In this document: positions 15,201-55,643 of the stretch, piece by piece
Numbering within the stretch: position 1 is the stretch's first letter
Layout of the letters: the number at the start of each line of letters is the position of its first letter
Origin: an uncultured Elusimicrobia bacterium
GTDB lineage: Bacteria > Elusimicrobiota > Elusimicrobia > FEN-1173
Assembly (NCBI GenBank): GCA_964482515.1
Contig: CAYZXT010000006.1
Location: forward strand, 28,521-92,520
Direction of reading: 5' to 3'
Length of the DNA: 64,000 nt
Position numbers and translations under genes: made by a program
The notes under the pieces: model-generated
What the model was told of the DNA's origin: nothing
Seen by the model: only the letters and a program-made list of their open reading frames with translations
The model's database searches: none

Positions 15201-18200
15201 CAGCCCCGCCTCCTTCGGCCGAAATGTCCGCCGCGCCGCCGTCCGCAGAAACGCGGCCACGTTCGGATCGTCCGCGTAATCGTCAAGATAAACGTCCTCA
15301 AAGGCCCGCATCCAATCCAGCGTGCCATCGGGGTTTCGAGCCTGGCGGCACAGGAGCCGGAGGCGTCCCAGGCTGAAATCCGCCCGAGCCGGATAGAGCC
15401 CGCGCCGCGCCGGCGGAGGGACCGTCTCGAAAGCCCTTCTCAAGGAGAGCACCTTCTCAATATCGCTTTCCGTGAGAGCTCCACTGAATTCGCGCTTCAA
15501 TTCCTCCACTATGTCCCGCACGGAAATGTCCAACACGGCGCGGTGAAGAACCGAGACGCCGGCGCCGCTCCCGATATGAGAAAGAAGGATCAAGCGTCCC
15601 GTTAAAACGTTTTCCCCTTTGCCGGCGAAGGGACGGACCTCGCCGTTCACCACGAGATAGGGATTTTCATGCAAAGCCGTTTCCAACTGGCGCAGGAGAT
15701 CCGGATTGGATTCCATCCCCGCCAAAACGACGGTTTCTCCCCGTTCCAAGGCCTCCAACACCTGCCTCTTGACCGCCCGCAAACGCCCCCCCGGCAACAG
15801 CTCGCTCGCCATCGATAGATCGTCCAGGATGGTCGCCGGCGTGACCGGATAAACAAGGGGGGGCTGGCCGTTCCGTTCGGAGACGTCCCGCATGATCCGC
15901 GCCAACAGGCCGGACGGGTCCGATCCTTCAACGAGCGACACCCGCCGGTCCCGCGCCATTTCCCACGACTCCGGATCCGGGGCCCTGGTCCGGCGGACCG
16001 CCGGCAGCATTCCACGATAACGCAACGGGACCTCCACGCCGACGCCCAATTCAATTTCCAATTCGCCGCCCATATGCAAAAGACGGTGCCACAGCGACTC
16101 CGGAATTTCCGGATCGGTTATAAGGACCCGGAGACGCCCTCCGTCCGCGCCCATCCGCTCCAGCAATCCCGCGCCCTGGGACAACGTCCCCTGGGAATCG
16201 ATGCGGGTGAACTCAAACAGCTGGTGCTGCGTTTCCCGGTTCAAGACCCACGCGCGCTCCGCCGGCCAGGCGGTCTCGCCCGCCGGCACGACCCGTTTAT
16301 TCTCCAAGGCGCGCCGCCCGTAGCCGCCCTCCGCCCAATGGACGGAAAAACCTTCCCGCGCCGCCACCCATTTTCCGTTGGAAAGGATCCCGCCGTTCAA
16401 GAGGGCCTGCCGGACCATGTGGGACAACCGGGTGTTGGGGATTCCCTGCTCATCTCGCCACACGCCCCCTTGGATCAAGAGGGGCCGCCCTTCCCTCATG
16501 GCCCGGACGAGTGCGCCCTCTTCCCAGCGCACGCTTCCGTTGGGCAGAAGCCGGTAGCGCGCGACCAGCGCATCCTTAATATCGATGTCGTCGGACTCGA
16601 AAAGTTCCGCGCGCAGGCCGTTGAAAGCCTCCGGATCGTCGACCTGGGACAAACCTTCCAGCGGATCCGCGTAATCCGCGTCCGCTTGGAATTCCCCGGT
16701 CAGGGAGCGTGAATAAAAATCAACCGAAAATTCACGCAGCTGGTCCTCCCGCACCGCCCCAACGATGCGGAGCGACGGAGAGGCCTTAACGCCCAAATAC
16801 TCCGGAGAGTCCCCGAACAGCTGATTGAATCCCGCCACGGTCTTTGGGTCGGAATTCGTGTAGTCCAGGAACAACACGCCGCCCCGCTCGATCAATTGAA
16901 GCAAGGGGCTTTTCGCCTCCCCAAACCGGCCGTTTATCACGCGCGCGGGATTGAGCAAATCATCCAAATCGGTGTCATCCCGCAGGGTCAGCCGCAAATA
17001 CGGAATGTTTCCGTTCGCGGCCACGATTTCCCTTAGCCGCACATCCAATGCCTCCACATCCCGGGGCGTATTCACGAAGGTCAACCCGCGACCTTCGTTC
17101 AATAGATCGGTCAGGCTCGGATCGGCCCACGGCGAACCCATCGTCATCGGGAAACGGCGGAATATTTTGTTCCACCCCGTGTGGACGGCAACGGCCAGAA
17201 CAAAGCCGATCACCATGGCCAGGAGGGAGTAAAGCGGTCCATCGAACCCGGACAGGAACAACCGGGGCGCGGCGAGGGCGGCGAGGTTGAATAAGACAAC
17301 GGCGAAAAGGCGGACGGCGAAATCAACGGGGGATTTATTTTCATGGCGGAAAACGAAAGACGCCTGGTGCGCGGCGTAATAAACCGCCGCCACCAGCCAG
17401 AACGACATGACTATCGCCAAAAGCAGCGGATTCGCCTCCAGCAACACAGCCTTCAAATTCCATGCCGCCATCAGGATGAGGCCAGGCGCGCGGCCCATCC
17501 AAAAGGCGCGCCAGCGCGTCAACGTCGGCTGCCCCCGCGCTTCGATTTCCTTCCGCGCCGAAGCGGCGGGAGCCAGGCCCGCTTCTTCAATCACGGAATA
17601 GCCAAGCAGCTTGTGACTGATCATAGGATTCCTCAGCCACTCCGGCGCATGCTTGACCGCATTTTCGTAATAGGCCTTCGTGCTCGACAGGATCAGCGAG
17701 CGGCTTCCCCACAGGTTTTTCCACCAAGGAACGCTCAACCTCCGCGGCGGACTGAACCTCACCGACTGAAAGGAATCAGCGCCTCCCACGGGGAATTCGG
17801 CGACCACCGACGGCGCGCCCGGTCGCGCAATCAACAAGCCGTTCTCTCCGAACCCGATACTCCACCCCCACCACGCCTTGGCTTTCTCAATCAGCGCGCG
17901 AAGATTTTTACGCCTTTCACCTGAGGGAAGTTTGTTTTCCCTCCACCGCGCCTGGCTGCCCTCAACAGTGGCGGCCAAGGCGTTCGCCTTCACGGCGAAA
18001 TCATGGGCCTGGATCCTTCGCTGGAAGGGTTCGGCCAACCGCCGAATCAGCCCCGGCGAGGTAAACCGTGCGAAGATCAGGGAGATGGGTTCTCCGGCGA
18101 AAATTTTCTCGATGGGGAGTGGATCGCGGGAGAAGATGTCCATGTAATTTTTGGCCTGATCGATGTTTTCCACCTTTGGCGTGACGACGACGTAAGACGC

Positions 18201-39559: not shown

Positions 39560-39841
39560 TCAGCCGCCGGAGCCGGAGTTCGAGGAGCCGGTGGACGCCT
39601 TCCGCGCGCCCGGCCCGCCCGCCACCTTGCCGATCACGTTCTTCAGCCAGCTTTTCTTCGCGCCGCCCGCGTCGGGCTTATGGGACTGGGATTTCTTTTC
39701 GTCCGGCGCATCGGCCCGCGGCGCGAACTGCGCCTTCGCCAGGGCCTTGCTCTCCTTGACCTGGTCTTCGGCCAGGTGACATTTCTTATACTTCTTCCCC
39801 GAACCGCAATGGCAGGGGTCGTTCCGTCCGATGTCGTTCAT
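39560..39841 (-). CDS. small SEC-C-motif protein with Lys/Ala/Gly-rich basic tail
   Basis: The N-terminal metal-binding motif NDPCHCGSGKKYKKCH is followed by a low-complexity basic tail. Confidence 0.65.
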   Translation of the reverse strand: MNDIGRNDPCHCGSGKKYKKCHLAEDQVKESKALAKAQFAPRADAPDEKKSQSHKPDAGGAKKSWLKNVIGKVAGGPGARKASTGSSNSGSGG

Positions 39842-39845
39842 GATT

Positions 39846-40250
39846 TCACTCCCAAATGGGCGCGTGCCACAGCGCCTCCATGAGCCAGCGCACCTCGGAA
39901 TCGCACAGCACCATCTCCGAGTAATCCGGCTTTCCCTCATCGTTCATGTAAGAAAGCGCCACGGTGACGTCCCGGTGTTTTTCCGCGTTCTTGTTCTTGG
40001 ACCAATCCGCGGACACGCACAGCAGGCCGTAGGGGACGTCCAAATGGGACCGCCACGCGGCTTCCTGGCAGGGGCCCTGGCAGGTCAGGCCCTTATGACG
40101 GGCCGACTCTTGGCCCTTCCGCGGGGCCTTGCCGGTCATCCCGGCGGCCTCGCAGATGGAAGCCAAAAAACTGTCCAGTTTCTTTTTGCTGATACGGGGA
40201 CCGACTTTCCGCTTTCCTTTGTTCTTTCGGTCTTCGTGTTCCTGTTCCAT
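39846..40250 (-). CDS. hypothetical protein
   Basis: 134-aa ORF with protein-like composition, 4 nt upstream of the SEC-C gene. No motif recognised. Confidence 0.4.
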   Translation of the reverse strand: MEQEHEDRKNKGKRKVGPRISKKKLDSFLASICEAAGMTGKAPRKGQESARHKGLTCQGPCQEAAWRSHLDVPYGLLCVSADWSKNKNAEKHRDVTVALSYMNDEGKPDYSEMVLCDSEVRWLMEALWHAPIWE

Positions 40251-40283
40251 GAGAGGAGTCTCCTTTGGAAGTTATACGGAAAT

Positions 40284-40568
40284 CTAATTGCCCTTCAGGT
40301 CGAACCAGGGGACCCGCTGCGCCCCGTGAGGATGGCCGTCCGACGCGAAGACCTGCACGCCCTTGATCTCGTACCAAACCGAATCTTGCGGCGCGCGCTG
40401 CGGATGGTGCTCCGTGGGGAAGAATTTCTTGTCCTGCACGCGGTACCACGGCTGCGCGTCCGGGCCGTCGGGATGGTGGACGGTGGTGAACACCAGCCCT
40501 TCGCGGATCTCGAAGGTCGGAAGTTTCTGGAAGCCCTTGGGATGGAAGACTGTATTGAAGAGTTTCAT
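40284..40568 (-). CDS. hypothetical small protein (His/Pro-rich beta-type)
   Basis: 94-aa ORF with repeated HHP/GHPHG segments and protein-like composition. Confidence 0.45.
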   Translation of the reverse strand: MKLFNTVFHPKGFQKLPTFEIREGLVFTTVHHPDGPDAQPWYRVQDKKFFPTEHHPQRAPQDSVWYEIKGVQVFASDGHPHGAQRVPWFDLKGN

Positions 40569-40605
40569 AGAGGGTTCACCCGTATTTTAGCAAATTGGTT
40601 GGCTT

Positions 40606-41505
40606 TTAGTTCCGTCGAGCGTCGGCCTTGGCGGGGACGAGGCTGCGTTCGGCCGAGAGGACCGTGTTCCAGAGCAGCATGGCCACGGTCATCTTCCCCA
40701 CGCCGCCGGGAACGGGCGTGATCAGGCGCGTCACTTCCTTGACCGCGTCGAAATCCACGTCGCCGCAAAGCCCCGTGGCGAGCCGGTTCATCCCGACGTC
40801 CACCACGACCGAGCCCGCCTTCACCATATGGGCCTTGATGAAGCGCGCGGAGCCGATGGCCGCCACCAGGATGTCCGCTTGGCGGCAGATCTGTCCGATG
40901 TCCTTGGTCCGGGAATGGCAGAGGGTCACGGTGGCGTCCGCGGCCAGCAGCATCAGAGCCAGCGGTTTTCCCACCAGCTGGGAGCGCCCGACCACCACGG
41001 CGTGGGTGCCGCTGATCGACACGTTGTTCTGCTCGAGGAGCTCCATGATGCCCCAGGGCGTGCAGGGGAGCGGCAGCTTCGAGGCGAGGACGTCGTTCCA
41101 GCTCTTCAGCTGGGCCCAGCGCCCCTGGTTCGACGGATGCAGACCGTCGGCGTCTTTCGACGGGTCGAGGGCGAGGAGGATTTTTTCCGGGTTTAAATGT
41201 TTCGGCAAGGGGAGCTGCACGATGATGCCGTGGACCTGGGGATCGGCGTTCAGCGCGCGGATTTTTTCCAGCAGGGCCTCCTCGCTGACGCCCGACGGAA
41301 GCGGAACGTGGATGGACTTTATCCCGTTCTGCTCGCAGGTCTTGATCTTTTGTCCCACGTAAACGGCCGAGGCCGGATCGTCGCCAACCAGCACGGTGGC
41401 CAAACCCGGCACGATGCCCTTGGCGGACAGTTCCTGGGCCTTGGCCTTCACCCGCTCAAGGACTTTTCCCGCCGCCATTTTCCCATCCAGCAAACTTGCG
41501 CTCAT
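40606..41505 (-). CDS. folD: bifunctional methylenetetrahydrofolate dehydrogenase/methenyl-THF cyclohydrolase
   Basis: LATVLVGDDPASAVYVGQKIK...GIIVQLPLP...VVVGRSQLVGKPLALML...TPVPGGVGKMT. Confidence 0.95.
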   Translation of the reverse strand: MSASLLDGKMAAGKVLERVKAKAQELSAKGIVPGLATVLVGDDPASAVYVGQKIKTCEQNGIKSIHVPLPSGVSEEALLEKIRALNADPQVHGIIVQLPLPKHLNPEKILLALDPSKDADGLHPSNQGRWAQLKSWNDVLASKLPLPCTPWGIMELLEQNNVSISGTHAVVVGRSQLVGKPLALMLLAADATVTLCHSRTKDIGQICRQADILVAAIGSARFIKAHMVKAGSVVVDVGMNRLATGLCGDVDFDAVKEVTRLITPVPGGVGKMTVAMLLWNTVLSAERSLVPAKADARRN

Positions 41506-44083: not shown

Positions 44084-44116
44084 TTGCACATCCAACTCAG
44101 CAAGGGGAATGAACCA

Positions 44117-47100
44117 ATGGCATCAAAACCGGTTTTCAACGCACGCAAATCCTGTTTGACCCGCTCGGTCGCCGCCGGGACGGCGCTCCTGTTCCTGGGA
44201 TCGACCGTCCTCTCCCCTTGGGCCGAAGCGAGTTTCTGGCAGGACCGGCGGAAAGCCGTCGAGTCATCGCAGCGTGACCCCGAAGCCGCGCAACAGTTCG
44301 CCCAACTCCCCCGGGCGCTTTCCGATTTGAACGGCGCCCTCCCGCGGGTCGCGAATTCCTTCCCCGACCGCCAAGCCCTCACCGACATTCCCTCCGTCCA
44401 AACGGACGGCATTTCCCGCAAAGACGTAGAACATCTGCCGTCGTGGCTGACCTCCCTTCCCGCGACCTACGGCGACATCCAGAAAATACGCCTGGTTACC
44501 CGGCCGGAAGAACATCCCCTCGTCGTCTTGGTGCAGGACGCCCATGAAATTTATTCCGCCCAGCTCAACATCTCGCACGTTCTGGAACACCTGGATAAAA
44601 ATTCCCAGGGCCAACGGCTGCTGATCGGGCTGGAAGGCGCCGCGGGGCCGCTCGATCTTAAAACTTACCGCCGATCCGCCGACCGCCGCCGCCAGGCCAT
44701 CGTTTCGGACGTCCTGCTCGAGACGAAACTGCTGAGCGGACCGGAACATTTCGGCTTCACGGCGGAGCGCGAACCCCGGATGCTGGGCGTCGAAACGCCT
44801 ACGCTCTACATCGAAAACGTCCAGGCCTATCAGGAATTGCTCCCCAGGAAAGACGCGTTCAAGGAACAGCTCTCCGCCTTCGATTTTTCCCTGAAACCGG
44901 CCAAAGATAAATTCTTCAGCCTCACGCTCTGGGCCCTGGACGAAAACATCGCCTCCTACCACAAAGGGTCCCTCGACCTCCTGCATTACGTGAAGTTTCT
45001 GTCCAAACAGGTCGAGCTCGGAAAGGATTTCCCGGAAACCCGCCAATTGCTGGACGTCCTGGCGCTCGAGGATTCCCTGGATTTCAAGGCCGTGGAAAGC
45101 GAGCGCCTCCAGCTCGTTAAAATACTCTCCCACCGCCTGGACAAGGCGGCGCTCAACGGTTTATTGCAGGCCAGCCTCGCCTACAAAATGGGGCGCATAT
45201 CCTACGGCGCGTACCACGAACACCTCCGCATCCTGACCCGGAACGCCGGCGTCGACCTCTCCCGCTTCCCCGGGTTCAACGTCTACATCCAGTACGTTCT
45301 GCTGTCGGAAAAAATCGACAAGTACACGTTGTTCGACGAAGTCAACGCTCTCAAAGAAACCGTCGTGGACCGTCTGGGGTCCAGCCAGGGCCAAAAAGAA
45401 CTGCTTCGCCTTTCCGAGGACATCCGCCTGCTGGAAAGTTTGTCGGAACAACAGTTCGGCCCCACCGAGTGGGAGCGATACTCGGCGCGGCGCGATGAAA
45501 TCCTGCGCATCCCGCAGCGCATCGCCGCGTTGTCCCATGACGCGCAGCCGTCGCCTTCGGCGGTCGCGTCGTTCCAGGAAACGCTCCCCCTGTTTGAACG
45601 TTTCTACCGCGCGGCCGACGCCCGCAACGGCGCCCTGATCGGGAACCTTCTCGAAGGCATGCAGCCCGCCGCGTCCGGACAAACGGCGGCCGTGATCGTG
45701 GTCGGCGGTTTCCACGCGCCCGCGATCGAAAAACTCCTGGGCGACAAAAACATTTCCGTCGTCACGGTCACGCCCAAGGTCGGCCCCGTCGACAAAGCGT
45801 CCCGCTATCTGGACGTTTTCGCGCTGAAGCACGTCCCGTTGGAGAAAATGTTCCTGGGCGAAAAGCTTTACATGGCGCCCGTGCGATTGACGGGCACGAA
45901 CGAGGCGATGGCGGCGATCCAACCAGCGAGAACAACCGATGATTTGAAGCGGGTCTATCTGACCTACGATTATATTCTCGACCAGCTGGGAGAGACCGGG
46001 AGAAAAATCAAGGCGTTCGGGGATCTCGACAAACACATCGAGTCAACTTTTGATCGCGCCCACGGCGTATGGTTCTTCAAGGTCCTAATGCCGGATGGGA
46101 GCAACCCAATTTATCTTTGCGGAGCGGAAACGGCAGGCGCCCGCGAAAAAGTAATCTCCGCTCTTGGTTATGCCCCAAGCGGTTTGAAATGGAAAATCGA
46201 CAAGCAGGAAGACGATATTGCGCTCGTCATCATTTCCGATCGAGCGGCCGAGAAATACCCCTTCTTACAGGCAAAACCATCCCTGACTTCCTGGGTCAAG
46301 GACGCGGTGGATTTCCTGCGCCAGCCGCCCACGGTCGCCGTGGCGGGTTTTGTCGCCGTCACCGCTTTAGTCGCTCAATACGCCATTGTCATTCTCGGCT
46401 TGGGAGTTCCGGCAGCTTTGATGATGGGAATGGCGTGGGGCGTCATTGTTCCCGTCCTTATCATTCTTATGGGCCAGTTGCCGCGATTCGCGCGAATGCC
46501 GGCTTTCGCTCCGGCAATGATGCGCGCCTCGAACAACTCACAACAACCGGAGGAGGTTTCCCCGAGCGCCCCGCTTTTCATGCAGTCCACCTCCCAGGGC
46601 GGAAAATCGGCAGTTAACGCTAATTCAACGGAAGAAACCCGCGCCATCAAGGCCTGGATCAGGGAGCAATTGGATTTAATGTCGGAGGAATTAGGCAAAA
46701 CCCCGGACACCTATGAGGAGATCCTGCGTCACAGCGACGAGGCTCTGACGGCTATCGCCCAACGGATCATCGACGGTACGTTAAACCGGCATGCAGCCAT
46801 CAACGTGGACCCAGACGCGCCCCCGGTCAAGACGACGGACGAGGAACTGAACATCGGCGTTTACGCGGTGGCCGCAAACCCTCTGCACTGGGGCCATATC
46901 CTGCTCGCTCTCGACGCCGTCGCCTATCACGGCGTGGACCAGGTAGTGTTCATCCCGCAGGGCGAAGACGAACGCAAACCCGACCTCGACAAGCTGAACA
47001 CCGAGCAGCGGCACGAAATCGTTCCGGCCGTCTTGGCCAATTTCGCGCCATTCTTTAAATATTCCCCCCTCGGGCTCGGTAACAAATACGACGGCGAAAC

Positions 47101-49825
47101 GAACGTTTTCCGCCTTTTCAAAATGAATCCTAATCAGAGGATGCGCCTGCATTATATGGTCGGCGCCGATCACTTCAACGTGTTCGTCCTCAACAAAGCC
47201 GGGCGATGGGTGGAAGACACGGTGGCGAAACTTTCCAAGAACCTCTTGGACCCAGCGCGCATCGCCGCATTGGACAACGTTTACCAAAACAATCCCCTCC
47301 ACAGACTCACGGCCCTTTTCATCGCCAGGATTGAAAAAGGTCGGGCGCTTATGCCGCGGTTCGATCAATTGGAAGCCGAGATCCGAGAAGCCTCACTAAC
47401 AAATATTTCCTTCGCTGATCAAGAAAGCGGGGGAAGCATTGCGCACGAGCAACTGACCATTCACGTCATGAAAGGCGTCCAATTCGAAGCCTCCTCCACC
47501 ATGGTGCGGAACGGCGATTACTCCCTGGTCCCTTACCACTATTACATGTACGCCAAAGCGCGCGGCATGTATAAAATCCCGCCGACGCCCCGGTGGAAAA
47601 TGGAAAAAAAACCCACGATGAGGCGCCTCGACAAAATCACCGGATTTTTACCCGACGGCGTGGCACCGCAGGGCATTTACTCGATGGAATGGCACCTCCG
47701 GTGGACGGCCAACATCACCCAGGCGGCCGCCAAGGAATTGCAGGTCAGCACCAACTGGGCGGAGTTCTTGGCGATGGTCCACGACCTCAGCGACTGGCCC
47801 TTCCGCCACTTTGGCCGGACAGGAGACTTCGCGCGGGTCATCGATGCCGCGCAAAGAGCCGGGTACAACCAGAAAGTCCAAACAGTGGAGCTGCTTGCCC
47901 AGGATGGGGTTTATCTGACCCCCGAAATGGTCAAAGACATTATACACTTCGACATAAGCAACCCGAACCCCACCAGCCCGGAGCAACAAGCCGCTTTGAT
48001 CGTGGATTCGCTCATGAGCGTTATGTCGGATATCGTCTTCGGACTAACGTATAGAGTCAGCGCTTCCAGCCAGGACACCCTCATTACGTACGACCAAATT
48101 CCGGAGGACCTTAGAACCCTCTTTAATTTGCGGGAAACGACACTCACGACTCTAAACGAGCAAAGCGACAACAACATCGGCGAGATGGTCCAGGTCGCCG
48201 TTTTAAACGCAGTCAGCAACCTGTACCGCGAGGTCGAGAGCTCCCAGGAGACCATTGAGGAGCTGGAACGTGTCATTCGGGAAATTGAAGCGGAAAAGGG
48301 TCCGCTTGATGACAAAGCCAAAGCGGACGTTCGCATCAAGGTTGTTAGGTTCGGGATTTACAAGCGAGCCGGTCAGGTCAAACAACAGGCCCGGGCAAAT
48401 TTTATCAGCGATCTCCTCTACAAACCCATGACGGCGGAATATTCCGCCGCAGCCTCCGATTACCTCATGCGGGCCTATGAAAAAACCTTCGGCGTCCCCT
48501 TCATCGGCGACGGTTCCGACGATGAAAAAGCCCGCGAATTCCTGGTAATACTCAGCCGCATGTCGGAAGACGAAGTCATCGCCTTGGCGGACGACGAGCC
48601 TGCGCGGAGCATGATGTACTTCGGTGGCGCGGCGGTGACGGGCGCCCTTGGCTTAATGGCCGCGTTTGGATCGATTCTCTTGGTTAATCGCTGGATCAAA
48701 AATCAAAATCCGGACTTCCGCCTTCCCTCATGGAACAACAAAGGGACCGCGGCCTATTTTGCTTTCAGCGTCCTTATGGGAATCCTTTTGTCCTCGTTCA
48801 TCCATGCATTGGGCGCCCCGCTTTGGATTGCCGACATGCTGACGGCGCTGTTCGTCATCTCCCCCCAGATTATCCTGACCGCCCGAATGAACTTGGCCCC
48901 GGCGACACATCAAACCCTTACGGACGAACACGTCGCGGAGGAAATCATTCCCAGTATTCGGATTACAACGACGAGCCTCGAGAAACAGCAATCTGAGATC
49001 CTGGCGCTGCTCACCGGCGACGCATCGAAATCCCCCGCCCGGAAACGGCAGCTGGCGGGCCGCGTCGCGGCGTTCGTGTCGACCTACGCCGCCCTGGACC
49101 GCGCCGCCGAGCAGCCCGGCCGGTCGGAAGCCGTGATTCAAGGCCTGGCGGATTCAGTCAGGCTAGCGCTCTCCTCGCTGAACGGATCCTTCAACGAGAC
49201 CCTGGCGTCCCTCTATAACGGCCTCATCGCGGCCGGGGTCCAATTGTTCCAGGGAAGCATCCCGAGCGGCCTGCAGATCGTCGTCGTCAACGCCGCCGAC
49301 CTGAAGGGTTTGAGCGCTTCCGAGCAGGACGTCTATCTCGCCCGCTACGTCGCGCCCGTGTTGGATTCCGCGCAGCGCGTCCTGGTCATCGGCGACGCGG
49401 CGTCTTACGGAGACGCTTCCATCGCCAAGATAAAGTCCGTCATCGACAACGCGAACGGCGGAAACGGCCTGCCCTACAGCTACGCGGAGGCGAAACGTCT
49501 GGACCCGGCCGATCCGGAATCGCCGGTCGACCTCATGGCGACGCTGAAACAAAGGGACGGCGCGGCGCTGAACGAGCTGACGGAAACAGGACTGCAGTTG
49601 AGCGGGTTCGTCACGGCCCTGGAACTCGCGAGCGTCGCGCCGCTGTCGAGCGACGACATCCGCGAGCTGTCGGACGCCGGCCTGCTCGCCCCCGACGGAA
49701 ACCTCTGGTTCCTGTGGGTCAGCATCGCCCTCAACCAGGCGTTCTCCGCGCAGAACGCGGCGCAGGCGATCCAGGGCATCGTCAACGACATCAACGGCAT
49801 CATCCAAACGCTGATCGCCGCCTAA
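44117..49825 (+). CDS. giant (~1,900 aa) polytopic membrane protein: conserved N-domain, NadD-like nucleotidyltransferase + HD-like core, C-terminal domain
   Basis: The frame is open from TTG 44084. ATG 44117 has a good SD (AAGGGGA, 8-nt spacing). Motifs: N-domain as in giant ORF 1; TM cluster ~46330-46490; AANPLHWGH (H at 46886) and SSTMVR (47492-47509); H-x28-HD (47693 / 47780-47785); coiled coil ~48240-48330; TM cluster ~48610-48890. TAA at 49823-49825. Confidence 0.9.
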   Translation: MASKPVFNARKSCLTRSVAAGTALLFLGSTVLSPWAEASFWQDRRKAVESSQRDPEAAQQFAQLPRALSDLNGALPRVANSFPDRQALTDIPSVQTDGISRKDVEHLPSWLTSLPATYGDIQKIRLVTRPEEHPLVVLVQDAHEIYSAQLNISHVLEHLDKNSQGQRLLIGLEGAAGPLDLKTYRRSADRRRQAIVSDVLLETKLLSGPEHFGFTAEREPRMLGVETPTLYIENVQAYQELLPRKDAFKEQLSAFDFSLKPAKDKFFSLTLWALDENIASYHKGSLDLLHYVKFLSKQVELGKDFPETRQLLDVLALEDSLDFKAVESERLQLVKILSHRLDKAALNGLLQASLAYKMGRISYGAYHEHLRILTRNAGVDLSRFPGFNVYIQYVLLSEKIDKYTLFDEVNALKETVVDRLGSSQGQKELLRLSEDIRLLESLSEQQFGPTEWERYSARRDEILRIPQRIAALSHDAQPSPSAVASFQETLPLFERFYRAADARNGALIGNLLEGMQPAASGQTAAVIVVGGFHAPAIEKLLGDKNISVVTVTPKVGPVDKASRYLDVFALKHVPLEKMFLGEKLYMAPVRLTGTNEAMAAIQPARTTDDLKRVYLTYDYILDQLGETGRKIKAFGDLDKHIESTFDRAHGVWFFKVLMPDGSNPIYLCGAETAGAREKVISALGYAPSGLKWKIDKQEDDIALVIISDRAAEKYPFLQAKPSLTSWVKDAVDFLRQPPTVAVAGFVAVTALVAQYAIVILGLGVPAALMMGMAWGVIVPVLIILMGQLPRFARMPAFAPAMMRASNNSQQPEEVSPSAPLFMQSTSQGGKSAVNANSTEETRAIKAWIREQLDLMSEELGKTPDTYEEILRHSDEALTAIAQRIIDGTLNRHAAINVDPDAPPVKTTDEELNIGVYAVAANPLHWGHILLALDAVAYHGVDQVVFIPQGEDERKPDLDKLNTEQRHEIVPAVLANFAPFFKYSPLGLGNKYDGETNVFRLFKMNPNQRMRLHYMVGADHFNVFVLNKAGRWVEDTVAKLSKNLLDPARIAALDNVYQNNPLHRLTALFIARIEKGRALMPRFDQLEAEIREASLTNISFADQESGGSIAHEQLTIHVMKGVQFEASSTMVRNGDYSLVPYHYYMYAKARGMYKIPPTPRWKMEKKPTMRRLDKITGFLPDGVAPQGIYSMEWHLRWTANITQAAAKELQVSTNWAEFLAMVHDLSDWPFRHFGRTGDFARVIDAAQRAGYNQKVQTVELLAQDGVYLTPEMVKDIIHFDISNPNPTSPEQQAALIVDSLMSVMSDIVFGLTYRVSASSQDTLITYDQIPEDLRTLFNLRETTLTTLNEQSDNNIGEMVQVAVLNAVSNLYREVESSQETIEELERVIREIEAEKGPLDDKAKADVRIKVVRFGIYKRAGQVKQQARANFISDLLYKPMTAEYSAAASDYLMRAYEKTFGVPFIGDGSDDEKAREFLVILSRMSEDEVIALADDEPARSMMYFGGAAVTGALGLMAAFGSILLVNRWIKNQNPDFRLPSWNNKGTAAYFAFSVLMGILLSSFIHALGAPLWIADMLTALFVISPQIILTARMNLAPATHQTLTDEHVAEEIIPSIRITTTSLEKQQSEILALLTGDASKSPARKRQLAGRVAAFVSTYAALDRAAEQPGRSEAVIQGLADSVRLALSSLNGSFNETLASLYNGLIAAGVQLFQGSIPSGLQIVVVNAADLKGLSASEQDVYLARYVAPVLDSAQRVLVIGDAASYGDASIAKIKSVIDNANGGNGLPYSYAEAKRLDPADPESPVDLMATLKQRDGAALNELTETGLQLSGFVTALELASVAPLSSDDIRELSDAGLLAPDGNLWFLWVSIALNQAFSAQNAAQAIQGIVNDINGIIQTLIAA
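44230..45870 (+). other. conserved N-terminal domain of giant ORF 2 (paralogous to 18085-19722)
   Basis: See the block-by-block alignment listed for 18085-19722. Confidence 0.85.
46840..47560 (+). other. NadD/NMNAT-like cytidylyltransferase-fold nucleotidyltransferase domain
   Basis: IGVYAVAANPLHWGHILLA is the (H/T)xGH motif in NadD-like context. FEASSTMVRNG is the ISSTxxR-type C-terminal motif. Their spacing of ~200 aa is appropriate for the fold. Confidence 0.65.
47690..48100 (+). other. HD-like phosphohydrolase domain (YqeK-like position after NadD-like domain)
   Basis: EWHLRWTANITQAAAKELQVSTNWAEFLAMVHDLSD gives H-x28-HD, the spacing typical of HD domains. I could not place the downstream metal ligands confidently. 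Confidence 0.4.
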
Positions 49826-50956: not shown

Positions 50957-53197
50957 TCATTCCCCTTCCCGCAGAAAAGCCTCCGGGATCCAGTAGCCGT
51001 TCTGGGGACGCCAGCCGTTCTCGCGGGAAAGCGTCCGGAAGAAGACGTCCCGCAGGTCCTGGACGCGCTTCGCGCCTTCCCGCATGACGGCGAAGTCCGT
51101 CTCGCCGTTGGAATCCGCCCCGAAGTGGTACAGCTCGTAACGAACGGACGGGCGCGTGGGGACATAGACCAAGCGCTCCTGGCCCAGCTGCACCATGCGG
51201 TGCCGGGCCATCATGACGATGTCCGCGTATTCCGGCTTCAACCGCAGATAGCCGCCGCGCCAAAAATCAAATTCCACCATGAGCGGGACCGGCGGATAGG
51301 GCAGGCGCTGCTTTTGATAGAAGCCGCCGTCGAAAGGCGACGCCCAAATCCCGGTCTCCGAATAGGCCGCGAAATATTCGTCCGCCTCGCCGCCGAAATC
51401 CCGCTCCGTGAGCGGATATCCCTCCATCTCCAGCGGCGCGGCCAGGTTCAGCAGGGAGAGGAGCGTCGGCGCCGCGTCCACGCCGCGCACCGGCTCGGAG
51501 ACGACCCGCGCCGGCATGCGGTGCCTCGGGTCCTGGAAGACCAGCGGCGCCTCGACCACTTCCCGCCCGCGCAGATGGTTGCCGTGGCCCTGACCGAGAC
51601 CCCGTTCAAAGAGCTGCTCGCCATAGGGAGACCATAGAACCACGATGGTCTTATCGGTCATTCCGTTTTTTTTCAGAGCGTCCAAAACCCGGCCCACGGC
51701 CGCGTCCACGGCGCGGACGTTGTTCTCGTAAAGCTCCCGCACGCGCTCCCGGTCCGCGGGAGAAAAACGCGCCCGCGCGCCGGCGGCCATGGGCATCATG
51801 TAGCGGCATGACCCTCTATAACGGTTGTGCATCACGTCGCCCGCCAGGGACGAGGACAGGGCGTAGGGCTCCCGCAGCGCGGAGAAATAGACCGTGAGGA
51901 AAAATTTGTCCTTGAACCGCAGCCTCGCCAGACGTGCTTCGGCCTCCTGAGCCAGCAACATCGGGTCGGACAATTCGGCCAACCCCCGCAAGGACGGGAA
52001 TGCCTGCCGCCCCCAATACCCGGAAAAATAGGGCAGCAAATGGACCTGCCGCTTGAAGGCGCGCTGGCGGAACAGCGAGCCGGCCCGCGCGTCCGGCGCC
52101 CGCACGCGGTGGAACGATTCCCGGACGCGCCCGAAGAAATTCCCCCCGAAGTCCGCCACCGCCTCCGTCCAATAACCTTCTTTGTTCAAACGGACGGGGA
52201 TCCCTTCGGCGCCCAGGCCCAGTTCGTCCGGCGAGGGGAACGCGTCGCGCACGCCGTGGGTGAAGGGCGAAAGCCCGGTGAAGAACGTCATCAGCGAGGG
52301 ATAGTTCCGCGCCAGCGGCGGCACGCAGGACGTGAAGGTCCGGCTCTGCGCGGCCAGTTCCGCGATGCGCGGCGCCAGCGGTTTTCCGTCCCGCTGCGCG
52401 GAGATCATATCGGAACGGAATGAATCCACCATCAGGACCAATACGTTGGACCCCTGGTTGCGGCGGGCCTGCAGGCGGAACACACCCCACACCCCTCCGA
52501 TGAAAACCGCCAGGAAAACCACCGCCACCAACCCGCCGAAACGCACGGGCGGGCGGAGCGCCTTCAGCCAGCGGACGAAACGCCGGACGATTTCCACGCA
52601 GGCCGCGGCCAGGAAGAGATACGCCGTCCATGTGTAGGCGGACAGCATCCAAACCGGGCAGATGTCCGTCACAAATATCTGCTGGAAGCGGAAGAAAAAG
52701 CCCCGCTCTAAAAAAGCTTCCTGATAAAGCGCCGGATGGCGGAACATGTCCCCCGTGAGGAAAGCGCCGTGGAGCCAGAATATCCCGAGGGCCGTGGCCG
52801 CGATGCGGGCGCCCCGCGAAAGGCGGTGGCGGTCCGCCGCGGGCCAGAACTCCCCGAGCAGGATCCAGACGTTCCGCCAAACGACGCCCCAGAACATCCC
52901 CAGCAGGACGTGCAAGACAAACAGGACGAAGTGGAACAGCGCGCGCTGAAGGAGGAACATGTCCTCGGGCAGCGGGACATAACTCAATCCCTCAAAACCG
53001 AAGAGTCGCCCGGGCCCCGACTGCCACCGGGAGAAAAGATAAAGCGCCACGCCGACGCCGGCGCCGACGCGGGACTCCAGGGAGCGGGCCGACTCCTTCT
53101 CGATCCATTGCGCGGCTTCCCATCCGCCGGAGACGATCCAGCGGCTGAAGATTTCGCGCAGGATTTTTCGGGCGCGCGGCCAGCGGTCAGGGTTCAT
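50957..53197 (-). CDS. membrane-anchored sulfatase/alkaline-phosphatase-superfamily protein (LtaS/phosphoglycerol-transferase-like)
   Basis: The ~260-aa multi-TM N-terminus is followed by NVLVLMVDSFRSDMIS (metal-binding/nucleophile strand) and ...GHGNHL... Confidence 0.7.
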   Translation of the reverse strand: MNPDRWPRARKILREIFSRWIVSGGWEAAQWIEKESARSLESRVGAGVGVALYLFSRWQSGPGRLFGFEGLSYVPLPEDMFLLQRALFHFVLFVLHVLLGMFWGVVWRNVWILLGEFWPAADRHRLSRGARIAATALGIFWLHGAFLTGDMFRHPALYQEAFLERGFFFRFQQIFVTDICPVWMLSAYTWTAYLFLAAACVEIVRRFVRWLKALRPPVRFGGLVAVVFLAVFIGGVWGVFRLQARRNQGSNVLVLMVDSFRSDMISAQRDGKPLAPRIAELAAQSRTFTSCVPPLARNYPSLMTFFTGLSPFTHGVRDAFPSPDELGLGAEGIPVRLNKEGYWTEAVADFGGNFFGRVRESFHRVRAPDARAGSLFRQRAFKRQVHLLPYFSGYWGRQAFPSLRGLAELSDPMLLAQEAEARLARLRFKDKFFLTVYFSALREPYALSSSLAGDVMHNRYRGSCRYMMPMAAGARARFSPADRERVRELYENNVRAVDAAVGRVLDALKKNGMTDKTIVVLWSPYGEQLFERGLGQGHGNHLRGREVVEAPLVFQDPRHRMPARVVSEPVRGVDAAPTLLSLLNLAAPLEMEGYPLTERDFGGEADEYFAAYSETGIWASPFDGGFYQKQRLPYPPVPLMVEFDFWRGGYLRLKPEYADIVMMARHRMVQLGQERLVYVPTRPSVRYELYHFGADSNGETDFAVMREGAKRVQDLRDVFFRTLSRENGWRPQNGYWIPEAFLREGE

Positions 53198-55643
53198 CGA
53201 GCGGGTCCCCCTTTCCTTGCCGTTGGCCGGCCTCCGTGGTCTTCAAGAGGGGGTCGGCCCAGAGCGTCCGGTCCGCGGCCGACGACGGATTTTCCCACAC
53301 GGTGGGGCTCGCGGACGAAGGGCGGCGCCCGATGAACAACAGCGGCCCCTCGTCCCCGGGAGACGGCGACGCGGAGCCTTCCATCCACGGGAAATTGTTG
53401 TAGTCGTACCATTCCACGCCGCGGCGCTCCAGGAAAGGCAGCCGGTACCGGGAGAAAAGCAGCTGGTCATTGGAGAGATATTTTTCGTTCACGCGCACCT
53501 GCATGACGTAGGAAATGGACGGTGGCCAAGTTTCAAAGCGGACCTCGCCCGTCGACGCGTTCAGCGTGAAAGAATATTCATAGGCGCCGGTGCGCGCGGA
53601 CTCCCCTGAGGAATGGAAGGAGCGGAACTGTCCGCCCGGAAGGCGGATGGAGCCGCGGACCGGCTGTCCCTTCAGGTCCCAAAAAACCAGTCTCGTCTCC
53701 AGCGGATCCGGATCGACTTCGTCCATCACGCGCCGCGTCAGGCTCAGCAGGTTGCGCTCCCGGTAGATAAGGTTGCGCGTTTCGCCCGGGTCCGCCCAAA
53801 TATCATACAGCTCTTCCCGGCCGTCGGGCATCCGCAAAATCTCCTCGCCCCATAATCCGCGCAGCTCCGTTTCGGCGGAACGTTCGCGCCGGACGTATTT
53901 ATAATGCCCTTCCGTCAGCAGGGACTTGGCGCCGTGGGCGTAGGTCAGGATCGGAAGGGCCTGCTCCTGGTCCGTGGGCTTCAGCGACAGGGAAAACGTC
54001 GAGCCTTGGAAGGTCCCCGGCGACGGCAATCCGAGGAGGGCCAGGAAAGTCGGGGCCGCGTCCAGGAGCTGCGTCGGCTTGTGAAAAATCCGCCCGGGCG
54101 GCAAATTGCGGTGCTTCAAAATCCAGACGGCGTGAATTTCTTCCTCCGTCAAATGGATCCCCTCCGCCGGGACGAAGCGCCAAAGCGCGCGGCCCGTGGA
54201 CGCCGAAACCATGGGACGCGGCGAGAAAACGGCGCCCCGGGTCGACATCGCCGAGACAAGACTGCGTTCGCCCAGATTGAAATCCTGCAAAAACTGGAGG
54301 AAGCGTCCGAGATATTCGTCAATGTATGACAGCTGCGCGCGCCGGCGCCATAAATCCAGATCCCCCCGGTCCCGCGGGAATCCATCGAACCCGCGGCCCC
54401 AATAGCGGAGCGGGGGTGGAGAATCCGGCGCGGCCTCTCCCGCATAGACCAAGAGGAAAAACGGCTCTTCCCCCTCATGCGCGGCCAACCAATTCTCCGC
54501 GGCCTGAAAGGTCTGGGCCGTGTCGTAGCCGGACGGCGCGAAAGCGTGGACTTCGTCGAAATTCCAGTCCACGCCCGGGCCGGGGTTGTCCGTCATGAAC
54601 CCCAAGGGACCCATGGCCACGGTGCGATAACCCGCCTCCCGCAAGACGGTCACCAGGCTCGCGGGCGCGTTCGCGTAAAAACGGTCGCGCTCCGCAGCGC
54701 CGGGGCTGGACGCCCGCGCCGCTTCGCCGATCTGGCTGATCCGGCGCGACGTCAACAGGCTCGGCAGGGCGAAGCGCGGCGATACGGCGTTGGTGTAGAA
54801 CCGTTGGTAGTCGACCCCCTGGCGGGCCAGGGAATCGAAAGACGCGAGAGTATGCCGCGCGGCGCCGTGGGCCCCCATTTCGTCCGCGCGCAACGAATTC
54901 AAAACGATCAGTACGACGGAGTCACGCGGAGGATTTTTCTTCGGCCGGGGGACCCAAAGGAGGGGCTCCGCCCAAAAGGCGTGGACTGAATCCGCCGAAA
55001 CGCCGTCGTCCCCCGCGGCCTCCGCGTGGAAACGCAGTTTCACGGAGCGTCCGCTGATCTTTTTAAGGTCGATCTCCGCGGCGGGCCAATGGGCCTCGGC
55101 TTCGCGCTGCGACAAGGCGGGCGACGGCGGCAGCCATTTTTTCCAGCGGGGGTCCTGGAACGGTTCGTGGGAAAATATTTCCTGGTCGAACAATCTCTCC
55201 ACGCCGCCGCCCGCCACGACCGCGTCCACGGTGAAACGCAACCGGCCGGGGACCGGCCCTTCGGCAAGCACTCCGCAATGGAACGTCAATACAGCCGAAG
55301 TGGGAACGAAGACGTCGAATTCGTAGGTCGAAGGAGCGGGAGCGTAGAGCGCGCGACGGCGGATGAAGCTTTCGGGAGGGTGGCCCAGGGACACCTGGAC
55401 GACGCGGGGAGATTGGTTGGCGGAAGGACGGGCGTTGGCCCAGGGATTCTTCGCCAACCGCGACGCGGACGCGCTGAAATCGTCCGTCGAAAGCCGGGCT
55501 TCGGAAGCCCTCTGCAGGAAATCATAGGCGGCCGTTCGGCGGGGCTTTGCCAGGGGTTCCGGAGAATGGGCCGGCAGCCGCTTATCGTTGGGCCAGAGGA
55601 CCGCCAGTCCGTAAGCCAGTCCGAGGGCCGCGGCCACGCTCAA
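53187..55643 (-). CDS. sulfatase/alkaline-phosphatase-superfamily protein, N-terminally anchored, with extra beta-rich domains
   Basis: SVVLIVLNSLRADEMGAHGAARHTLASFDSLARQGV is a sulfatase N-terminal strand. TTG start; the TM helix continues upstream, so the start is uncertain. It overlaps the downstream paralog by 11 nt. Confidence 0.7.
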   Translation of the reverse strand: MSVAAALGLAYGLAVLWPNDKRLPAHSPEPLAKPRRTAAYDFLQRASEARLSTDDFSASASRLAKNPWANARPSANQSPRVVQVSLGHPPESFIRRRALYAPAPSTYEFDVFVPTSAVLTFHCGVLAEGPVPGRLRFTVDAVVAGGGVERLFDQEIFSHEPFQDPRWKKWLPPSPALSQREAEAHWPAAEIDLKKISGRSVKLRFHAEAAGDDGVSADSVHAFWAEPLLWVPRPKKNPPRDSVVLIVLNSLRADEMGAHGAARHTLASFDSLARQGVDYQRFYTNAVSPRFALPSLLTSRRISQIGEAARASSPGAAERDRFYANAPASLVTVLREAGYRTVAMGPLGFMTDNPGPGVDWNFDEVHAFAPSGYDTAQTFQAAENWLAAHEGEEPFFLLVYAGEAAPDSPPPLRYWGRGFDGFPRDRGDLDLWRRRAQLSYIDEYLGRFLQFLQDFNLGERSLVSAMSTRGAVFSPRPMVSASTGRALWRFVPAEGIHLTEEEIHAVWILKHRNLPPGRIFHKPTQLLDAAPTFLALLGLPSPGTFQGSTFSLSLKPTDQEQALPILTYAHGAKSLLTEGHYKYVRRERSAETELRGLWGEEILRMPDGREELYDIWADPGETRNLIYRERNLLSLTRRVMDEVDPDPLETRLVFWDLKGQPVRGSIRLPGGQFRSFHSSGESARTGAYEYSFTLNASTGEVRFETWPPSISYVMQVRVNEKYLSNDQLLFSRYRLPFLERRGVEWYDYNNFPWMEGSASPSPGDEGPLLFIGRRPSSASPTVWENPSSAADRTLWADPLLKTTEAGQRQGKGDPLDEP

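Follow-up and report, generated by a model that had tools for sequence, protein, structure and literature searches.

A NadD-branch nucleotidyltransferase domain and an HD domain as apparent cargo of a modular membrane protein from Elusimicrobia

The window analysed here, a 64,000-nt stretch of DNA from an uncultured Elusimicrobia bacterium (assembly GCA_964482515.1, contig CAYZXT010000006.1, positions 28,521 to 92,520), carries a gene for a 1,902-amino-acid (aa) membrane protein that holds a NadD-like nucleotidyltransferase domain and an HD-superfamily domain between two hydrophobic clusters (Table 1). These two domains form the cargo of what we term a chassis, which runs in the order signal peptide, ~570-aa N-domain, transmembrane (TM) cluster, cargo, TM cluster and tail. 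An earlier note on this DNA had described such a pair between TM clusters of an approximately 1,900-aa membrane protein, and Kyte–Doolittle hydropathy bears this location out, with a cluster on either side. The gene lies in a long open reading frame (ORF; 44084..49825, + strand) of 1,913 codons counted from the first in-frame TTG. Its true start is probably the ATG at 44117, because the Shine–Dalgarno (SD)-like element AAGGGGA stands 8–14 nt 5′ of it and the public gene call on the identical Logan contig SRR14787578_12447 also comprises 1,902 aa. Unless marked otherwise, residues are numbered from the TTG at 44084; ATG numbering is lower by 11. At the N terminus, a tail with four Lys/Arg and no Asp/Glu precedes a hydrophobic core (aa 17–34 in ATG numbering, Kyte–Doolittle) and an AEA↓S site followed by SFWQDRRK. 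Hydrophobic cluster 1 is most simply read as two TM helices, and cluster 2 spans aa 1504–1524 and 1543–1589 (ATG numbering, Kyte–Doolittle).

Table 1 Features of the window, with nucleotide positions counted from its first letter
Feature	Position	Strand	Basis or remark
4,522-aa chassis paralogue	6285..19853	-	N-domain profile E 1e-125 (aa 60-612); SPLAEANFWEERR signature at signal-like N terminus
Gene for the 1,902-aa modular membrane protein	44117..49825	+	ORF list, translation, Logan gene call, SD-like element
Sec-type signal peptide or N-terminal anchor	44117..44230	+	Sequence, charge counts
Chassis N-domain, ~570 aa, conserved, unknown fold	44237..45919	+	Homologue matches, alignment A3, profile matches
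Hydrophobic cluster 1, 54 aa, bilobed	46331..46492	+	Kyte–Doolittle; aa 739-792 (ATG numbering)
NadD-like nucleotidyltransferase domain, including two-helix lead-in	about 46610-47599	+	
AANPLHWGH motif, aa 930-938 (HxGH = H935-W-G-H938)	46871-46897	+	
SSTMVR motif, aa 1137-1142	47492-47509	+	
Dgt/SAMHD1-type HD phosphohydrolase-like domain, all helical	about 47597-48580	+	
H1204 of H-x28-HD	47693-47695	+	
H1233-D1234 of H-x28-HD	47780-47785	+	
Hydrophobic cluster 2, stretches of 21 aa and 47 aa with a basic loop between	48626..48883	+	Kyte–Doolittle
C-terminal tail, ~310 aa, ends ...IQTLIAA	48884..49822	+	
Two adjacent membrane proteins of the sulfatase/alkaline-phosphatase superfamily, 746 and 818 aa	50957..53197, 53187..55643	-	Just downstream of the gene

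The motifs from which the earlier note had argued, AANPLHWGH, SSTMVR some 200 aa C-terminal of HWGH, and H-x28-HD, all stand in ORF 44117..49825 where that note had placed them. The region it had outlined, 46840-48100, is the right one, but these limits cut both domains short (Table 1). Its assignment of the first domain to the NadD type was upheld by profile searches and structure prediction, neither of which led to a different fold. The Pfam CTP_transf_like model remained below threshold on the window protein (E 0.03). NCBIfam NadD models matched the domain at E 7e-10 to 1.6e-9, far under their curated equivalog cut-offs (38.6 bits versus 150 for NF000840; 33.6 versus 112.45 for TIGR00482). 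A phmmer search of PDB sequences returned NadD enzymes only, and a profile built from a 43-sequence alignment of the NadD-like family (A1) matched only NadD/NMNAT entries, with a best E of 2e-11 and an end-to-end alignment with Mycobacterium tuberculosis NadD. An AlphaFold2 model from the same alignment reached a predicted local distance difference test score (pLDDT) of 85 and a predicted template modelling score (pTM) of 0.85, and all of its top 50 Foldseek matches (50/50) were bacterial NadD structures. Structural similarity of the model, scored at 14.1–15.6 for NadD/NMNAT, 10.8 for phosphopantetheine adenylyltransferase (PPAT), 10.5 for NadR, 9.8 for archaeal NMNAT and 6.3–7.4 for cytidylyltransferases, clearly favours NadD over cytidylyltransferases. 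The first cargo domain is a genuine, complete nucleotidyltransferase of the NadD/NMNAT branch, with an HxGH-class Rossmann fold.

Compared with NadD (M. tuberculosis 4rpi/5das, Bacillus subtilis 1kam, Escherichia coli 1k4k) and eukaryotic NMNAT, the window domain keeps HxGH and SSTxxR, the Asp of GxD, the loop Lys/Arg and the C-terminal ‘LxP..Y(I/V)...LY’; its key residues are H935-W-G-H938, K965, D1029-H1030 and S1137-S-T-M-V-R1142, and its A-SSTMVR aligns to SSTMIR of 1kam. It differs from NadD in sharing only 15–20% identity and, with its family, in having an N-terminal two-helix hairpin as a lead-in (pLDDT ~97) and an insertion of ~30–40 aa after GxDH. The window copy carries a further, private insertion of ~30 aa (aa 1092–1121), which is poorly modelled.

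An exhaustive HMMER search over 1.84 billion representatives recovered 338 representative clusters (50% identity) of this NadD-like family at E<=1e-3, and 182 at E<=1e-10. A word-indexed homologue search with the cargo sequence gave no match, and the same search with family profiles gave at least seven and at least four proteins. Members were found in Elusimicrobiota and Omnitrophota, and in Elusimicrobiota metagenome-assembled genomes (MAGs) the database label is ‘hypothetical protein’. NCBIfam NadD models matched 42 of 43 family members, with a best E of only 8e-15 and all scores far under the equivalog cut-offs. The NadD-like subfamily is previously unannotated, and Pfam does not detect it. 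Across 115 members, the catalytic-type positions are strongly conserved: H938, the second His of HxGH, in 116/116, W936 in 111/116, D952 in 115/116, K965 in 109/115, D1029 in 97/112, S1138 in 100/109 and R1142 in 99/107; position 935 is His in 91, Gln in 16 and Asn in five. E. coli NadD requires His-19, Arg-46 and Asp-109 for activity (PMC1249556), and the window copy retains the equivalents of all three. NadD contacts nicotinic acid mononucleotide (NaMN) through His-45, which stacks on the pyridine, through the backbone of a ‘YT’ region and through the region around Trp117 (PMC1249556). As judged by alignment only, these positions are remodelled: the His-45 position is Arg964 in the window and Arg in 91/116 of the family, ‘YT’ aligns to a near-invariant ‘GE’ (G1004-E1005), and the Trp117 region corresponds to a family-specific insertion with conserved residues of its own (H1030, D1045/T1046, H1073 and R1082). 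On these sequence comparisons the subfamily looks catalytically competent, and its acceptor is probably not NaMN because the NaMN-contacting residues are replaced.

The family also departs from NadD in its architectures. About half of its complete members are compact and leaderless; among 63 long-leader members, at least 30 satisfy strict signal-peptide criteria, and the nearest relatives of the window domain nearly all have a signal peptide and an Ala/Pro-rich linker. Larger fusions occur in Omnitrophota (for example, the giants P0014/P0163), and single giant proteins contain up to six NadD-like copies. Fusion partners include CDP-alcohol phosphatidyltransferase (P0015 by Pfam; P0009 by motif), a PIG-L/LmbE deacetylase (P0036), sulfatase/phosphotransferase-type domains (P0091), histidine phosphatase, methyltransferase and, judged by eye in P0022 where Pfam matched nothing, a multi-TM region resembling the major facilitator superfamily (MFS). 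Standalone genes of the family showed no conserved neighbourhood, and no member was found on a viral contig. As a side observation, six giants of 3,400–7,700 aa (P0002, P0003, P0004, P0024, P0029 and P0055), with one to six NadD-like copies of which some have a degenerate HxGH, contain numerous mutually unrelated enzyme modules, among them radical SAM, kinase, glycosyltransferase and phosphoglucomutase (motifs recognized by eye), separated by Ser-rich ‘SSSP’ linkers.

The second cargo domain is an HD-superfamily domain of ~330 aa with a Dgt/SAMHD1-type fold. That it is genuinely HD-like, as the earlier note had it, follows from three comparisons: an NCBIfam dGTPase model matched it at E 8e-7 (28.4 bits versus a cut-off of 393 for NF002327; model cut-offs 345–511); a profile from the HD-subtype alignment A2 (the window domain together with the P0111, P0130, P0139 and P0145 group) matched the Thermus thermophilus deoxynucleoside triphosphate triphosphohydrolase (dNTPase) 2dqb at E 2.6e-7 over ~260 positions; and an AlphaFold2 model (pLDDT 84) gave 2dqb as its best Foldseek match (E 7e-4, TM-score 0.5–0.57), followed by CloA (E 0.012), bacterial dGTPases and SAMHD1. 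The Pfam HD model scored E 0.12. What did not survive is the note's suggestion that the pair mirrors nadD–yqeK. Both the window protein and the NadD–YqeK pair or fusion (PRK07152) place an HD-superfamily domain after a NadD-type domain with HxGH, but the window HD domain has about 330 aa versus about 190, PRK07152 matches the window protein over its NadD part only, and the YqeK-type diadenosine tetraphosphate (Ap4A) hydrolases match at chance level both by profile (8jja E 0.14 and 2o08 E 0.69, over ~35 residues) and by Foldseek (2ogi E 0.65), for which reason we rejected this reading. An NCBIfam scan of the window protein likewise found no YqeK match.

The putative metal ligands H1204, H1233, D1234 and D1308 are all present and line up with their 2dqb counterparts; H1204 and D1234, the latter directly after H1233 and the x28 spacer, are invariant in a six-sequence alignment, and D1308 aligns to the Asp of ‘SDAIAY’ in 2dqb. 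dNTPases use a catalytic His–Glu dyad within PFGHxGE (PMC12265719). In the corresponding stretch of the window, P1239-F-R-H1242-F-G-R1245, the His is kept and the Glu is replaced by Arg, with Ala, Met, Asn or Thr there in homologues. Because the dyad is only half present, we class the domain as Dgt-like in fold and not as a dNTPase; by sequence it is probably not a classical one. An acidic ‘EG..ED’ motif of the subfamily reads ‘MS..SD’ in the window. Compared with Dgt/SAMHD1 dNTPases (TT1383 2dqb; 7tu2 and 7lwz; CloA 9p8s; SAMHD1), the domain shares the all-helical ~330-aa HD fold, the H..HD..D ligands and the His of the PFGH motif; it differs in lacking the dyad Glu, in scoring 28 bits versus 345–511 and in being embedded in a membrane protein. 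Among the matches listed, four other proteins contain this HD subtype (P0111, P0130, P0139 and P0145). With L009–L011 they make up a small, divergent subfamily found in N-terminally anchored large proteins.

The chassis constitutes a protein family that is defined in the present analysis and is unpublished, and the window holds two of its members, of 1,902 and 4,522 aa. Homologues of the N-domain are L003p (E 1e-145), P0072 (E 1e-100), P0130, L004p, P0110, P0121 and P0165. In a scan of the genome collection, L003p and L004p, both Elusimicrobiota MAG proteins, showed 44% and 24% identity, respectively, over the N-terminal ~570 aa. A ‘PxAEA(S/N)FW..RR’ signature and a signal-like start are common to all of these proteins and to the 4,522-aa paralogue. 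Alignment A3 revealed N-domain invariants in D101/H103 (in ‘QDAH’), E133-G134, R463 and G490-G-F-H493, and profile searches of Pfam and PDB sequences gave no match for the domain. QDAH, EG and GGFH may recall the ChaN/TraB/Tiki/erythromycin-esterase superfamily, a resemblance that found no support at the sequence level.

What the chassis carries differs from member to member. In P0072 the N-domain precedes a pair of NadD-like copies enclosed by hydrophobic clusters; P0110 and P0121 combine it with one NadD-like domain each, and P0130 joins it to HATPase_c and the HD type of the window with no internal TM segment; P0165 is short and has no cargo. L003p and L004p are devoid of HxGH, SSTxxR and the HD module, and Pfam found nothing in either. 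The 4,522-aa paralogue has three further hydrophobic-cluster pairs and different cargo, in which only an AAA_5 P-loop was detected (near aa 1673), and its G+C content at third codon positions (GC3) falls to 0.57 over aa 3001–4000. A second chassis copy lies on the L003 contig. The chassis is present as several paralogues per genome, with cargo differing between them. GC3 of the window cargo is 0.70, versus 0.78–0.84 for the chassis ends and 0.78–0.86 for neighbouring housekeeping genes, which is consistent with cassette-like acquisition. The NadD-like/HD pair looks like variable, swappable accessory cargo. L004p (L004:9953-15283) has peculiarities of its own: its first hydrophobic cluster (aa ~695–748) is far larger, with about six hydrophobic helices, and contains within a hydrophobic segment an HExxH-like ‘FILHEGAHW’ reminiscent of intramembrane metalloproteases, and its cargo, which matches nothing in Pfam, has a HIT/GalT-like motif ‘KEHQHPQ’.

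Among all proteins and loci examined, the NadD-like and HD types occur together in the window protein only, and no HD-subtype locus has a NadD-like neighbour. Searches for close orthologues of the cargo found none in Joint Genome Institute (JGI) metagenomes and, in Logan assemblies, the identical copy only. The 64-kb window contains no other NadD-type ORF. Genes for FolD, an RNase H-like protein, a diacylglycerol (DAG)-kinase-like protein, ApbA, the two membrane sulfatase-family proteins and squalene synthase neighbour the gene; the Pfam domain of the two sulfatase-family proteins is also the one fused to the NadD-like domain in P0091. The surroundings of the gene showed no secretion-system genes. 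A defence-system reading was considered and gained no support: PADLOC found no defence-system match, no family member lies on a viral contig, and the neighbourhood is of a housekeeping kind, with no defence island.

We favour, with a probability of roughly 0.6, the reading that the NadD-like/HD pair carries out accessory, membrane-tethered nucleotide chemistry and not housekeeping NAD synthesis; catalysis, substrates and this role are what we infer from fold, family and motifs. The earlier note's view that the arrangement is not a housekeeping one is also the better reading, given 34–39 bits versus cut-offs of 112–150, the differing cargo of related chassis and a paralogue with different cargo. 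In our scheme, the NadD-like domain would use a nucleoside triphosphate (NTP), probably ATP, and a phosphate-bearing acceptor to form a pyrophosphate-linked, dinucleotide-like product and pyrophosphate (PPi). The HD domain would bind metal through H..HD..D and hydrolyse a nucleotide phosphoester or anhydride with non-classical specificity, and both domains would act at the envelope as tethered accessory nucleotide chemistry. The fusion partners of the family, though heterogeneous, hint at envelope or glycolipid precursor chemistry.

Several points weigh against this reading. The substrate inference comes from alignment to NadD and not from a ligand-bound model. The compact leaderless members might be true NadD enzymes particular to their lineages, a JGI annotation names one family member as a NaMN adenylyltransferase, and the gene may be the organism's only one of NadD type, the check having covered the 64-kb window. 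The two domains may not cooperate at all, because the fusion is unique so far, and a co-evolved functional pair lacks support because no other protein or locus combines both types. The topology, moreover, is contradictory. TM3 has an acidic flank ahead of it and a basic loop behind it, and because cluster 1 looks like a two-helix hairpin the cargo would share the side of the exported N-domain; the signal peptide, the even-numbered cluster 1 and the charge bias at TM3 apparently place an NTP-dependent fold outside the cytoplasm. The dependence of both folds on NTPs, the fusions to CDP-alcohol phosphatidyltransferase and the basic flanks of the L004p cargo argue for the cytoplasmic side. Hydropathy and the positive-inside rule are suggestive within the window protein and inconsistent across chassis members. 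Omnitrophota giants with metabolic-enzyme domains are likewise predicted to have a signal peptide with TM segments or to be extracellular, and their authors regard TM predictions for such proteins as unreliable (10.1101/2023.11.21.568195; 10.64898/2026.06.07.730766).

The same topological signs, together with the signal peptides and linkers of the nearest NadD-like relatives, the leaders that pass strict criteria and the TM-free P0130, which has the same N-domain and HD type, lend weight to an exported effector, a reading that we consider unlikely. Here the chassis would be a secretion or translocation device, and its domains would make or destroy nucleotides in the periplasm or in a prey or host cell; Sec-signal-bearing NadD-derived enzymes of Elusimicrobiota and Omnitrophota would have been recruited for export as exchangeable cargo between chassis arms that insert into the membrane, and would synthesize or deplete pools of dinucleotides or nucleotides outside the producer's cytoplasm, which we likewise hold to be improbable. 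Conserved arms around a variable centre may recall MARTX-type toxins. Nucleotidyltransferases, however, depend on NTPs, and the periplasm has none; the topologies disagree among chassis members and come from TM predictions of a kind that the giant-protein papers call unreliable; roughly half of the family is leaderless; secretion-system genes were not seen near the gene; and the fusions to CDP-alcohol phosphatidyltransferase and the MFS-like region imply a cytoplasmic location, if the topology of these partners is canonical. The fusions to CDP-alcohol phosphatidyltransferase, PIG-L/LmbE and sulfatase/phosphotransferase-type domains would fit with activation of envelope precursors, in which a phospho-alcohol or sugar phosphate is nucleotidylated to an NDP-X for membrane transferases that build lipid head groups or envelope polymers. 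The DAG-kinase-like and sulfatase-family genes flanking the gene and the remodelled NaMN-contacting positions point the same way, but the partners are heterogeneous (histidine phosphatase and methyltransferase among them), standalone members have no conserved neighbourhood and the HD domain is left unexplained; we rate this proposal as quite improbable.

Three further readings, namely housekeeping NadD, coupling of a YqeK- or Clover-like kind and dead domains, each have a lower likelihood than the accessory reading. That the protein is the organism's sole NaMN adenylyltransferase, fused into a membrane protein, would agree with the NadD-like fold, motifs and catalytic Asp/Lys, with the single NadD-type ORF of the window and with the one database label; it is nonetheless very unlikely in view of the low equivalog scores, the altered acceptor pocket, the presence of up to six domain copies per giant protein and a cargo GC3 unlike that of host genes. 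Related Elusimicrobiota chassis proteins, moreover, are without the module, and those lineages must therefore get NadD elsewhere. A non-catalytic module, with one or both domains serving as nucleotide-binding sensors or structural spacers, could account for Arg1245 (or A/M/N/T in homologues) in place of the dyad Glu, for ‘MS..SD’ and for the degenerate HxGH of some giant-protein repeats (for example, in P0002), but the NadD-like domain of the window keeps every catalytic-type residue that is conserved family-wide, and all four HD metal-ligand positions are kept as well, and we give this option only a slender chance. Least credible of all is a coupled pair, whether NadD–YqeK-like or one in which the nucleotidyltransferase product regulates a dNTPase, as in Clover. 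One polypeptide contains both domains side by side, CloA is among the Foldseek matches of the HD model, and Clover joins a dNTPase to a nucleotidyltransferase that makes an inhibitory dinucleotide (PMC12265719). Clover (CloA and CloB) thus resembles the window protein in pairing a nucleotidyltransferase with a SAMHD1-like HD enzyme, but it is a two-gene cytoplasmic anti-phage operon whose CloB belongs to the Pol-beta superfamily (PMC12265719), whereas the window enzyme is of the HxGH/NadD type and stands outside any defence context. The chance-level YqeK matches, the absence of the family from viral contigs and the failure of the two domain types to co-occur elsewhere also tell against coupling.

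A parallel in overall design is with the ‘Archaeovorins’, giant proteins of Omnitrophota (10.1101/2023.11.21.568195; 10.64898/2026.06.07.730766), which likewise begin with a signal or a TM anchor, continue with a series of divergent enzyme domains hardly visible to Pfam and have a puzzling predicted topology; the NadD-like family itself is also present in Omnitrophota giants. The window protein differs in its far smaller size (1.9 kaa; 1 kaa, 1,000 aa), its Elusimicrobiota-like genome, its defined chassis and its single cargo slot, and neither giant-protein paper mentions NadD-like or adenylyltransferase domains. It offers a compact, tractable model of giant multi-enzyme membrane proteins, with one chassis, one slot and two small domains suited to expression. 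The modular architecture is hitherto undescribed; the kinds of enzyme are already known. NadD is usually viewed as a soluble protein that is essential and serves NAD synthesis alone, and it counts as a target for antibiotics. The analysis exposes a hidden NadD-derived subfamily of 338 clusters in two poorly understood phyla, one that keeps the catalytic machinery and has what appears to be a remodelled acceptor pocket. If the cargo is cytoplasmic, it would represent a new membrane-tethered nucleotidyltransferase chemistry; if it acts outside the cytoplasm or is passed on to other cells, it would be a nucleotide-targeting interaction of a new type. Were the export reading true, the chassis would be a previously unrecognized modular delivery system, and the NadD-like domain would be the first of the NadD/NMNAT branch to lie outside the cytoplasm.

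The C-terminal tail of the window protein matched nothing in Pfam or PDB sequences, nor anything among 167 related proteins by phmmer, blastp or jackhmmer. A shared tail domain had been suspected from similar endings, and the same three programs gave no significant similarity. The endings themselves are biased: 12 of 50 proteins of at least 700 aa terminate in [SA]A-COOH, versus four of 117 smaller ones (for example, ...TLIAA, ...FLTSA, ...IETSA and ...ALIAA). Such endings are found in the window protein (49796-49822), the 4,522-aa paralogue (6288-6320), L004p, P0165 and P0133, and also in P0021, P0110, P0121, P0125, P0134 and P0139. This terminal bias of large proteins may reflect a common C-terminal sorting, processing or degradation signal.

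Elsewhere in the window, ARAGORN called a tRNA-His with an unusual anticodon, ‘atg’, at 40065-40137 (+), inside ORF 39831..40721. The call is probably a false positive, because Rfam, run on the whole window at gathering thresholds, found no tRNA or other RNA family. Past FolD in this organism, a gene for a SEC-C-motif protein adjoins one for a SWIB-domain protein (L002:5200-5828); SWIB domains are uncommon in bacteria outside Chlamydiae and their relatives.

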